This document shows, piece after piece, positions 54,336-56,348 of a stretch of 64,000 bases of DNA. Location: the NCBI GenBank assembly GCA_964399675.1, contig CAYNRK010000004.1, forward strand, positions 12,715-76,714. The letters run 5' to 3'. A model generated the notes under the pieces. It searched no databases. It was not told where the DNA came from and saw nothing but the letters and a program-made list of their open reading frames with translations. Position numbers and translations under genes: made by a program. Positions within the stretch are counted from its first letter, which is position 1. Each line of letters begins with the position of its first letter. The stretch is from an uncultured Gammaproteobacteria bacterium. GTDB taxonomy: Bacteria > Patescibacteriota > Patescibacteriia > UBA9934 > GWF2-40-263.

Positions 54336-56348
54336 ATGGATAAGTCAAAAGCGAAAACAAGGGTTGAAAAGCTTAAAAAAGTGATAGCTGAGCATCGTTA
54401 CAGCTATCATGTTTTGGATAAACAAACGATTTCAGATTCAGCTCTTGATTCTTTAAAACACGAGCTTTATAAACTTGAACAAGAATATCCAGAGCTGATC
54501 ACTCTTGATTCGCCAACACAACGTGTTGGTGGCGAGCCTTTGAAAAAGTTTGAGAAAGTTACACACAAGCGCAGGATGCTTTCAATGGAAGATGTTTTTT
54601 CTCGTGAAGAAATGGAAGCTTGGCAAGAGCGTTTGAAAAAAGTTAGTGGCAAAACGGTTTCAGAATTTTTTTGCATGCCAAAGCTTGATGGTTTAGCAGT
54701 TGCTTTAATTTACAAAAACGGAGTGCTCGATGTTGCGGCAACTCGTGGAAATGGAAGTGTTGGCGAAAATGTTACACAAAATGTAAAAACGATCGAGTCT
54801 GTGCCGCTATGCCTAACCCCCCCTAACCCCCCCTTGAAAAAGGGGGGAATTCCTTCAAGAGTTGAGGTTCGGGGTGAGGTTTATTTTCCAATTAAAGAAT
54901 TTGAAAAGCTTAATAAAGAATTAAAAAAGCAGAATAAGCCTGAGTTTGCAAATCCTAGAAACACAGCAGCAGGTTCAATCAGACAACTTGATTCAAAGAT
55001 CACAGCTTCGCGCGGACTTGCGTTTGTTGCTTGGGATTTAGATGGAGATTTTGGACAAGATAATATGGTGGATGAGTGGAAGCTTTTAAAACAACTCGGC
55101 TTTTGTTCTGTTCCTGAATCAAAGTGCTTTGACTCAATTGAAGGAATTGAAAAACATTGGAACTGGTTACAAAAGAAACGTGAAGATCTTGGATATTGGG
55201 TAGATGGAATGGTTGTTCGTGTGAATCAAAATAAACTCTACGAAGACCTGGGTGTTGTTGGGAAAACTCCTCGTGGACTTGTTGCGTGGAAGTTTGCAGC
55301 TGAAGAAGTTACAACAGTTATAAAAGATATAAGATGGTTTGTTGGTCGAACCGGTGCGCTTACTCCAGTTGCATTGGTTGAGCCAACGCAGGTTGGTGGC
55401 ACAACTGTTCAAAATGCTTCACTGCACAACGTTGATGAGATCGAGCGGCTTGATGTTCGTGTTGGCGATACAGTCATCTTGTATAAGGCTGGTGACATTA
55501 TTCCAAAAATAAAAGAGGTGTTAATTAAGTTGCGTCCAAACAAAACAGTTAAAACAAAATCACCTACAGATTGTCCGGTTTGTGGTTCGTCTGTGAAACG
55601 AAAGCAAGGTGAGGTGGTTTTGTATTGTGAAAACAAAAAGTGTTTTGTTCAGGACAGGGAAGCGATTCTACACGCAGCGCGTGCGTTTGAAATCGACGGA
55701 CTTGGTCCGCAGTCCATTGCAGCGCTTCTTGAAAACAATATTATCAACAGACCCTCTGATTTGTTTTCATTAAAACCGGATGACATGCTTGGACTTGAGG
55801 GGTTTGCAGATATTTCCGCAAACAAACTTGTTGATGAAATTCAAAAGCACAAAACAATCTCACTTCCAAAATTTATTTTATCGCTCGGTATTCGAAACGT
55901 TGGAGAACAAACAGCAGTGGATCTTGCAAATCATTTTGGTTCGCTTGAGAAATTTATAGCTGCATCTGAGGAAGAATTACAGTCTGTTGAAGGAATTGGA
56001 GAAATTGTTGCGCAAAGTGTAAAAGAGTTTTTTAATCAAGAACACAACCACGACTTGGTTAAATCGTATATTAAGCATGGGGTGAAGGTTGAATCTCAAA
56101 AAAAGCCGGACATTAATTTCCCATATGCGAAAAAAATGTTCGTTCTTACTGGAACACTTGAGAGTATGGGTCGGGATGAGGCCAAAGAGAAGGTTCGGGG
56201 TTTGGGTAGTAAAATATCAGGTTCGGTGAGTAAAAGTACTGATTATGTTGTTGCTGGAGAAAGTCCTGGGTCTAAATACGATAAAGCTAAAGAATTGGGT
56301 ATTGAAATTTTGACCGAGAAAGAATTTCTCGCTATGATTGGCAAGTAG
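54336..56348 (+). CDS. ligA: NAD-dependent DNA ligase
   Basis: KLDG adenylation motif ([10 protein letters not shown]), Zn-finger C..C..C..C, HhH and BRCT. In-frame family-C insertion at 54813..54849 (..[10 protein letters not shown]..). Confidence 0.9.

Follow-up and report, generated by a model that had tools for sequence, protein, structure and literature searches.

A G/C-rich triplex-motif repeat lying in frame in ligA of a Patescibacteriota bacterium belongs to a dispersed family that brackets DUF559 nuclease genes

We analyzed a 64,000-nt stretch of DNA (here called the window) from an uncultured bacterium that is deposited under Gammaproteobacteria and placed by GTDB in Patescibacteriota (assembly GCA_964399675.1, contig CAYNRK010000004.1, positions 12,715 to 76,714). 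The ligA gene in this window encodes the NAD-dependent DNA ligase and carries a 37-nt G/C-rich repeat within its reading frame. Nhmmer found 12 copies of the same family in the window, all within 40,043-54,849 (14.8 kb). Five are solo copies lying in frame inside genes, and seven bracket two genes of the DUF559 family. On balance, we favor the explanation that ligA holds a solo copy of an intrastrand-triplex-motif repeat, G/C-rich, dispersed and spread horizontally, which also forms the inverted terminal repeats of DUF559 cassettes, and that its copying is linked to the nuclease.

The ligA copy reads CTAACCCCCCCTAACCCCCCCTTGAAAAAGGGGGGAA on the plus strand and 5'-TTCCCCCCTTTTTCAAGGGGGGGTTAGGGGGGGTTAG on the minus strand; the minus-strand 37-mer of a cassette copy is 5'-TTCCCCTCCTTTTCAAGGAGGGGTTAGGGGTGGTTAG. 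An earlier sequence-only reading had reported a palindrome inserted here in frame, and its coordinates and its claim that the frame stays open were right. The 39-letter string it gave included one flanking base and one extra C. The open reading frame (ORF) that holds the copy is a complete ligase with Nlig-Ia, adenylation, OB, Zn finger, HhH and BRCT domains (Pfam, all above thresholds). The same reading had placed the insert between the adenylation and OB domains (OB, aa 326-403). It lies instead inside the adenylation, or nucleotidyltransferase (NTase), domain (PF01653, aa 70-323), between motif I (KLDG, K116) and motif III (EVRGE, E177). The catalytic motifs around it (KLDG, TRGNG and EVRGE) are intact. 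The alignment with E. coli LigA 2OWO (E=5e-166) has the insert after "...PLKLHGEN" and before "IPARLEVRGEV", and the window protein is 7 aa longer there. Residues 160-174 are coil in an AlphaFold2 model (61 orthologues in the alignment; mean predicted local distance difference test score, pLDDT, of 86), with a mean pLDDT of 73 for residues 161-170 versus 90-95 in the neighboring blocks.

The exact window LigA protein was found on 8 contigs (NCBI, JGI, Logan and ENA), and two independent ENA contigs share the insert. Because independent assemblies agree, an assembly artefact is ruled out as its origin. An intein or intron was rejected as its identity, since the copy is too small and has no such motifs. 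An RNA-level triplex was rejected because purine-motif triplexes do not form in RNA (PMC4666352), so that any structural role of the motif would be at the DNA level. Elsewhere in ligA, 24 nt (55106-55129) are missing from two ENA contigs with 99.5% nucleotide identity to the window. The missing stretch lies between short CTTTG-like direct repeats, and its loss takes SVPESKCF out of the adenylation domain without a frameshift. It may be a true strain variant, or else slippage or the assembly may have deleted the bases.

The element is more than the simple palindrome first described. It consists of a first arm, A1 (TAA plus 7 nt), a second arm, A2 (TAA plus 7 nt), a loop, and a final arm, A3 (7 nt plus AA). 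A2 and A3 pair as a hairpin, and A1 is the mirror image of A2, not a direct repeat of it. In the ligA copy, A1 is CCCCCCC, A2 after its TAA is CCCCCCC, the loop is TTGAAAAA and A3 is GGGGGG, which makes it an all-C subtype. Its single-stranded hairpin has 8 bp and a predicted stability of -9.2 kcal/mol (ViennaRNA, which models the hairpin only). We examined the mirror relation in copies with a single T in A2 and a single non-C base in A1; the window and 200 fetched loci yielded 145 distinct copies of this kind. The position in A1 equaled 8 minus the position in A2 in 141 of the 145 copies, and it equaled the A2 position, as in a direct repeat, in 1. The rule holds across four position classes (1/7, 2/6, 3/5 and 5/3). 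The non-C base of A1 is T or A, with G in 2 copies; T and A here agree with the T.AT and A.AT triplets described for the purine motif (PMC4666352). On comparative grounds, this mirror-arm covariation shows that the motif is under structural constraint.

The G-rich (minus) strand reads 5'-TT-CCCCTCC-loop-GGAGGGG-TTA-GGGG[A/T]GG-TTA. Its order is a pyrimidine arm, a loop, a purine arm, TTA, a third (reverse-Hoogsteen) arm antiparallel to the purine arm, and TTA. The pyrimidine and purine arms are Watson-Crick partners separated by a loop of 3-6(7) nt. The third arm follows a 3-nt loop (TTA), is antiparallel, and obeys G.GC and A.AT or T.AT. Judged by its sequence, the element is a class II purine-motif intrastrand triplex motif of the BoxC/PIT/TM class, and we infer that the window sequence would form such a triplex. 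The minus strand of the all-C copies, GGGGGGGTTAGGGGGGG, also fits G3-N1-G3-TTA-G3-N1-G3, which is a canonical G-quadruplex motif with short loops. A quadruplex can therefore be predicted as an alternative to the triplex fold in the all-G subtype.

BoxC, PIT elements and TM_ECO are one family (Bachellier, 1990s; Hoyne & Maher 2000; Holder et al. 2015, PMC4666352). Its consensus is 5'-CCCTCNCCC N3-6 GGGNGAGGG N3 GGGNGAGGG, 34-37 nt long (Holder et al. 2015, PMC4666352). E. coli K-12 holds 23 copies, whose second loop is TTA or CCG, and the G-rich strand on its own folds in vitro into a stable triplex by the evidence of CD, NMR and Mg2+ dependence (PMC4666352). TM_ECO copies are always intergenic, have no promoter or terminator activity, and are linked to local genomic instability, and Holder et al. 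found no mobility genes near them; cyanobacteria also hold many G/C-rich triplex motifs (PMC4666352). The window family agrees with this class in total length, in the order of the G-rich strand, in a loop of 3-7 nt followed by a 3-nt TTA loop as in type A, and in a third arm that obeys G.GC and A/T.AT triplets. It also occurs in tens of dispersed copies, often in inverted pairs that join two subtypes, and it is tied to locally variable DNA with no transposase nearby. However, it does not fit the TM_ECO consensus. Its arms have 7 triplets (GGAGGGG-type) and are preceded by TAA, whereas those of TM_ECO have 9 (GGGNGAGGG). Unlike the always intergenic TM_ECO, 5 of the 12 window copies are translated inside genes. 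The window family also differs in occurring in at least 10 phyla, including the candidate phyla radiation (CPR), and in having a candidate partner gene in DUF559. By these sequence features, it is distinct from TM_ECO and forms a new family within a known class.

Each half of the ligA element has 11 matches in the window at up to 3 mismatches, versus 0.00 expected from shuffles. All window copies form a perfect hairpin of 7-9 bp, with 7-nt arms of CCCCCCC, CCCCTCC or CTCCCCC, each after TAA. The earlier reading had assigned the ligA repeat to the same family as repeats in other conserved genes. This is borne out, as lepA (twice), a RimK-like gene and the prepilin peptidase gene also carry copies (Table 1). 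The ligA copy matches the lepA copies at 36 of 37 positions. The reading also spoke of a third essential gene. It is a third conserved gene, but LepA, although highly conserved, is not essential in E. coli. At a permissive threshold, an Rfam search of 39-56.5 kb returned chance-level miRNA or leader matches alone, and none for the 37-nt element.

Table 1. Repeat copies, DUF559 cassettes and the ligA host gene in the window. E, copy of the repeat, with its orientation in parentheses.
Feature	Coordinates	Strand	Remarks
Solo triplex-motif repeat in ligA	54813..54849	+	in frame, peptide of 13 residues
ligA host gene, 670 aa	54336..56348	+	insert at aa 160-172, coil loop directly before motif III
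Solo copy in lepA, site 1	45787..45823	+	in frame, 13 residues, aa 71-83
Solo copy in lepA, site 2	46447..46483	+	in frame, 13 residues, aa 291-303
Solo copy in RimK-like ATP-grasp gene (39314-40321, minus strand)	40043..40079	+	read as 12 residues
Solo copy in prepilin peptidase gene (51964-52734, plus strand)	52217..52253	-	read as PPLIKGGLGGV
DUF559 cassette a, between recJ and rnhA	49366..49890	+	repeats and DUF559 gene: truncated E(-) 49366-49380, E(+) 49385-49421, E(-) 49442-49478, DUF559 gene 49489-49848, E(+) 49854-49890
DUF559 cassette b, between pilD and ligA	52744..53285	+	repeats and DUF559 gene: E(-) 52744-52776, E(+) 52789-52825, E(-) 52846-52882, DUF559 gene 52893-53252, E(+) 53249-53285

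The solo copies are read in three different frames or orientations and give three different peptides. Since one DNA sequence yields three unrelated peptides, the identity of the family is at the DNA level and not at the peptide level. The element has one stop-free frame in plus orientation and two in minus orientation. We consider it highly improbable that the insert is kept for a host function, either as a useful Pro/Gly-rich loop of LigA or as a homopolymer phase-variation (frameshift) switch. The C7/C7/G6-7 runs are prone to slippage, and in one JGI assembly lepA is split into 294 and 321 aa, with the break inside element 2 (…GTPP* / LKRGGT…). The split implies C8 instead of C7, which brings the TAA of the element into frame. 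The C8 is either a homopolymer sequencing error or true slippage in a coding poly-C run, and the possibility of an error weighs against a switch. In addition, switching off ligA would be lethal, most LigA orthologues work without the loop, and a function of the peptide is hard to square with identical DNA being read as unrelated peptides in different genes.

By its LigA and LepA matches, the source organism belongs to Candidatus Uhrbacteria (Patescibacteria/CPR). We compared the window LigA with its 120 closest orthologues (59-99% identity) on a neighbor-joining tree. About 100 of the 120 Uhrbacteria LigA proteins have a shorter, unrelated loop at the insert site. The segment from "PL" to "VEVRGE" has 12-16 residues in most orthologues (e.g., PLKLRAPKGKKILDRI) versus 20 in the window. 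In the nearest clade of the window LigA (P0039, P0031, P0034 and P0035) the loop has 12-13 residues and is thus empty. The DNA at this loop in the syntenic contig L005, CTAAAGCTTGAATCTGACAAACTCCCA, is unrelated to the motif. The earlier reading held that its proposal would fall if all LigA orthologues of the phylum had a loop of equivalent length and unrelated nucleotide sequence. The alignment shows otherwise, and the copy is an insert relative to most orthologues. It is also near-consensus, with 1 substitution in 37 nt (G to A, which changes R to K), whereas the flanking ligA codons are about 70% identical to those of relatives. Empty orthologous sites hold 6- to 7-nt matches to the motif center or 3' arm (CTTGAA, AAAGGG and AAGGGAA), a weak signal, given that some 0.2 such matches are expected at each site.

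At least 13 of 121 LigA orthologues, in at least five separate places of the tree, have motif-derived peptides at exactly this loop, among them TTPNPSLKRRG, TPPNLPFERGG and TPPSPPLVRGG. Such recurrence in one loop, orientation and frame could mean that the ligA copy is not recent. One ancient insertion in an Uhrbacteria ancestor would then have been inherited vertically and precisely lost many times, with gene conversion keeping the hairpin perfect and consensus-like. LepA points the same way. Its site 1 is likewise filled in six lineages, and the filled LepA alleles share additional flanking residues ([DE]Y[TS]xx). The ligA copy of contig L003 also looks like a relic, as it is the sole family match in 22 kb and its first arm has decayed. 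However, the scatter of carriers over the tree and the empty nearest clade speak against a single ancient event. Each lineage holds a different, internally compensated DNA variant: L003 has ATAACCACTCCTTATCCCTCCTTGAAAAGGAGGGGAAT with CCCTCC/GGAGGG arms, L006 has ACCCCTCCCAACCTCCCCTTTGAAAGGGGAGGA with CCTCCCC/GGGGAGG arms and a matching mirror arm, and the window is all-C. At least one orthologue, P0041, carries the motif at the same loop in the opposite orientation. We therefore regard an ancient insertion as quite improbable. LepA site 2 is filled in the window and its closest relative, P0134 (79% identity), and both LepA sites are empty in P0135-P0137 (78-79% identity).

In the LigA of contig L004 (10001-12058, GCA_016206085.1), as well as in P0008, P0009 and P0013, a second GC-rich insert, CCACCTTCGCCAAGGCTTCGGTGG…, with the peptide FHLRQGFGGQV, is nested in the hairpin loop of the motif. 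The hairpin loop itself is a hot spot for more insertions.

The seven other window copies define two cassettes of about 0.5 kb each, located 1-5 kb upstream of ligA. Both DUF559 genes encode 119 aa, are paralogous, and match Pfam PF04480 at E~1e-32. They have the same layout, an inverted minus-plus pair and a further minus copy before the gene and a plus copy after it. Between the cassettes, the gene bodies are about 87% identical, while the block of elements before the gene and the copy after it match at 100%. In cassette b, the first TAA of the downstream element doubles as the DUF559 stop codon. The window DUF559 protein matches the YcjD equivalog model at E=4e-19, below the cut-off of that model, and also matches the solved DUF559 structure 3HRL. 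Three syntenic Uhrbacteria contigs (L003, L004 and L005) have the gene order lepA-recJ-rnhA-pilM-...-pilD-ligA-gatC without a DUF559 gene. Their lepA encodes 597-599 aa versus 618 in the window. The window DUF559 cassettes are insertions relative to these relatives, because recJ and rnhA, and likewise pilD and ligA, are adjacent or overlapping there. A GC-rich ORF of 195 aa (53457-54044), with no Pfam, NCBIfam or PADLOC match, lies between cassette b and ligA. It is kept in conspecific contigs and missing from L003-L005, and it is probably foreign DNA that arrived with or beside cassette b.

The family extends far beyond this lineage. We scanned one genome per species with the pattern TAACCNCCNCTAACNCCNCCTTN{3,7}GNGGNGAA, which has 24 specified bases, and it matched at least 114 stretches of DNA. 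Among the matches listed are many CPR lineages, Cyanobacteria, Bacteroidota, Gammaproteobacteria (Thiomargarita, Marinomonas and Moraxella), Betaproteobacteria, Gallionella, Planctomycetota, Poribacteria, Ignavibacteria, Chloroflexota and others. As judged from their near identity, the copies in at least 10 phyla show horizontal spread. The motif had 0 matches in 2.9 M viral contigs and is therefore not phage-borne. Four arm subtypes recur in the cross-phylum sample, and the loop varies freely. Many copies form inverted doublets, which are either head-to-head, with spacers of 12-20 nt, or tail-to-tail. Set against a miniature inverted-repeat transposable element (MITE), a non-autonomous DNA transposon that has its terminal inverted repeats in common with an autonomous element and makes a fixed target-site duplication, the family gives a mixed picture. 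The head-to-head doublets share both ends with the DUF559 cassette, but the ligA copy corresponds to a single end, the inserted length varies, and no target-site duplication is seen. Long ORFs contain 33 of the 117 cross-phylum copies. The earlier proposal that the element targets or survives in coding DNA holds for survival. Targeting is unsupported, because five of five solo copies in coding DNA is about what chance gives in a genome that is about 90% coding. The all-C subtype is enriched in ORFs in the cross-phylum sample (7/9 vs 26/108, p=0.002).

DUF559 is the sole recurrent family among 1094 ORFs that neighbor the cross-phylum matches. We examined this association in an independent sample of 80 metagenome loci that were retrieved by DUF559 protein alone (42-57% identity), counting as flank the 200 nt upstream and 150 nt downstream. 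A family copy flanks 43 of the 80 DUF559 genes versus 1 of 126 other ORFs in the same loci (odds ratio 145, Fisher p=6e-21). Likewise, 92 of the 109 motif matches in the sample fall in the 8.6% of sequence that adjoins a DUF559 gene. In the usual layout, the minus copy ends about 6 nt before the start codon and the plus copy follows the stop codon at a distance of about 20 nt. As in terminal inverted repeats, the copies turn their TAACC heads toward the gene and have their hairpins at the outer ends. In a cyanobacterial metagenome-assembled genome (L076 3799-6627, CAVVRZ010000001.1), a whole cassette lies in frame inside the methyltransferase domain of an MmeI-type restriction-modification protein of 943 aa and splits the Pfam MmeI_Mtase match in two.

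The association reaches E. coli. K-12 ycjD encodes a DUF559 protein (L201 6195-6761, NC_000913.3 1351194-1351760), and TM_ECO no. 9 (Holder Table 1) lies 168 nt downstream of it. A TM-like hairpin overlaps the ycjD stop codon, and a duplicated fragment of the ycjD 3' end adjoins a GGGTTAGGGG remnant. The gene is accessory. It is present in 3378 of 5426 complete E. coli genomes (62%), and eefRABCD takes its place in phylogroups such as B2. Among 59 evenly sampled chromosomes, ycjD-positive strains have 17-33 TM places (median 22) versus 2-20 (median 8.5) in ycjD-negative strains.

We propose the following scheme. At the DNA level, the G-rich strand would fold as a hairpin, and the mirror-image third arm would bind the purine arm. 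The family makes up the inverted terminal repeats of cassettes that encode a predicted YcjD-like, Vsr-fold endonuclease. Our best guess is that this DUF559 nuclease recognizes the motif or cuts at it. The resulting breaks, or replication stalled at the folded motif, may then be repaired by copying the motif to new, mostly nearby sites. A genic copy would survive only if its junctions keep the frame, if a stop-free frame is used (one of three in the orientation seen here, two of three in the other), and if the site is a permissive surface loop. In LigA, the site is a variable loop of the NTase domain that directly precedes motif III, and the motif is translated there as a Pro/Gly-rich extension of about 4-8 residues net. 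In this scheme, the activity and specificity of the nuclease and the copying step are inferred.

Several observations weigh against this scheme. To our knowledge, PD-(D/E)XK nucleases do not catalyze strand transfer, so DUF559 cannot be a classical transposase. LigA gains a net +4 to +8 aa and LepA +15 and +5 to +7 aa, none of which equals the 12.3 codons of the element, and pattern lengths of 35, 36 and 37 nt are all present inside ORFs. There is therefore no fixed inserted unit; we saw no target-site duplication, and the inserted length is variable. The filled loops look like loop replacements with heterogeneous junctions, to judge from the alignments, rather than clean insertions. At the E. 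coli adk-hemH locus, filled and empty alleles likewise differ by segment replacement (~158 nt for ~52 nt) with no target-site duplication. That comparison, tried as a definition of insertion junctions, was consequently uninformative on mechanism. The missing target-site duplication, the variable junctions and the E. coli segment replacement together argue against classical transposition. The presence/absence polymorphism in sister strains that the earlier reading looked to was not found: conspecifics (two contigs at 99.5% nucleotide identity and the members of the 90% clusters) have no empty ligA allele, so that a recent insertion into ligA is presumed. Two candidate empty alleles among the 90%-cluster members were rejected. 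A shorter PilD was merely truncated at its N terminus, and a shorter LigA had the unrelated 24-nt deletion. The correlation of TM counts with ycjD is confounded by phylogroup. DUF559 sequence did not covary with hairpin subtype (p=0.28) in a narrow sample dominated by one subtype. Coding solo copies are of the all-C subtype (five of five in the window versus none of the seven others), whereas DUF559-flanking copies are of other subtypes. Finally, the triplex escaped detection by Holder et al. both in vivo and in duplex DNA (PMC4666352).

Several of these points fit a different explanation, in which the motif spreads without DUF559. The fold would stall replication, and new copies would arise by template switching, by microhomology-mediated repair, or by recombination after horizontal transfer, while the DUF559 genes would be separate selfish homing-type genes that land in the multi-copy motif and thereby become flanked by it. 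In vitro, PIT elements stop DNA polymerase, and small rearrangements cluster at TM_ECO loci (PMC4666352). The heterogeneous junctions, the lack of target-site duplication, and the different subtypes of coding and cassette-flanking copies also agree with DUF559-free spread. So do the secondary hairpin-loop insertions at the same LigA site in L004, P0008 and P0013, the 2-20 copies that ycjD-negative E. coli retain, and, weakly, the short motif matches at empty sites. However, this explanation leaves the near-invariant primary sequence across phyla unaccounted for. It also does not explain the regular cassette architecture, with heads toward the gene and a hairpin at each outer end. Head-to-head doublets, in turn, resemble internally deleted cassettes. 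For these reasons we consider spread without DUF559 unlikely, and we prefer copying linked to the nuclease.

The cassettes invite comparison with known repeats. REP/REPIN repeats flank a low-copy RAYT gene, and this flanking is how the partner was discovered (PMC3116915). The window family resembles them in its short GC-rich hairpins, its singlets and inverted doublets, and its single- or low-copy protein gene flanked by repeats. However, no HUH Y1 transposase family recurs among the 1094 neighboring ORFs; the partner is a PD-(D/E)XK/Vsr-fold DUF559 nuclease, and a third mirror arm is present. Unlike REPs, which are extragenic and species-specific, the window family is near-identical across phyla and enters coding DNA. 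In behavior only, it resembles the Rickettsia palindromic elements (RPEs), selfish palindromic repeats that Ogata et al. reportedly described in 2000 as lying in frame in conserved Rickettsia genes, where they are translated as surface-loop additions, with no known transposase (see also PMC1779305). RPEs are 100-150 bp long, are confined to Rickettsia and relatives, and have no triplex arm or nuclease gene. The element described here has 37 nt and no Rfam match. The small dispersed repeats (SDRs) of cyanobacteria, reported by Elhai et al. in 2008, are said to be 21-27 nt long, hairpin-embedded, nested, and occasionally inside conserved sequences. By description alone, they are alike in being very small mobile repeats that sit in hairpins and nest; we know of no triplex arm or DUF559 link described for them. 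I-Bth0305I, of the EDxHD family, is a Vsr-fold homing endonuclease of a phage group I intron with a unique target site. It sets a precedent for a Vsr-like nuclease that spreads its own gene. Unlike I-Bth0305I, the DUF559 cassettes are free-standing and bracketed by a multi-copy motif that is missing from the viral contigs. No paper in the literature library that we searched connects DUF559 with these repeats. Their presence in frame inside conserved genes, their spread across phyla and their link to DUF559 appear to be new.

The window holds other repeats. A second, unrelated dispersed repeat lies at 47514-47630 (…GTCATCCCGAGCGAGGCGCAGCCAAGCCGAGGGATCTCGCATATTCGAGATTTCTCCGCTCGC…GGTCGAAATGACA) and has at least 12 copies across the whole window. 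Further copies are near 2708, 8806, 22544, 27540, 29847, 30341, 30472, 35265, 37230, 40274 and 60469. It often lies directly upstream of start codons and inflates ORF calls (SRDLAYS…VEMT). AT-rich long palindromes at 5370-5417, 5947-5992, 54179-54232, 38085-38140 and 24646-24681 form two families, all intergenic, and one of them lies about 100 nt upstream of ligA. The first family reads AATACTTATACCA…CGTGACGATCGTCA…TGGTATAAGTATT. The second is a perfect 56-nt palindrome, AAAAAAATACTTATAAAATACTTCTCGA|TCGAGAAG…. Besides the 195-aa ORF, GC-rich islands occur at 20-22 kb, 44-46 kb and 60-64 kb.

Although BoxC/PIT/TM repeats were recognized about 30 years ago, no function, origin or mobilizing activity has been assigned to them. 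The window gives natural covariation proof of the mirror (triplex) arm, and it extends the triplex class beyond Proteobacteria and Cyanobacteria and into the coding DNA of conserved genes. For annotation, the motif explains the recurrent PPNPPLKRGG, PLFKGELEGV and 11-residue peptides in CPR and cyanobacterial protein predictions. The association with one family of small nucleases, to which E. coli ycjD belongs, holds across phyla with strong statistical support and provides a testable candidate partner protein, and the question can be addressed directly in E. coli by comparing ycjD-positive and ycjD-negative phylogroups. More tentatively, and with some doubt, we suggest that DUF559/YcjD-family Vsr-fold nucleases may be the missing partners of BoxC/PIT/TM repeats. 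Together they may constitute a new, phylum-spanning class of tiny selfish elements, made up of a cassette of about 0.5 kb and its 37-nt solo and doublet derivatives. Such elements would use a three-stranded DNA fold as a signal and would be compact and stop-free enough to enter essential genes such as ligA in frame.

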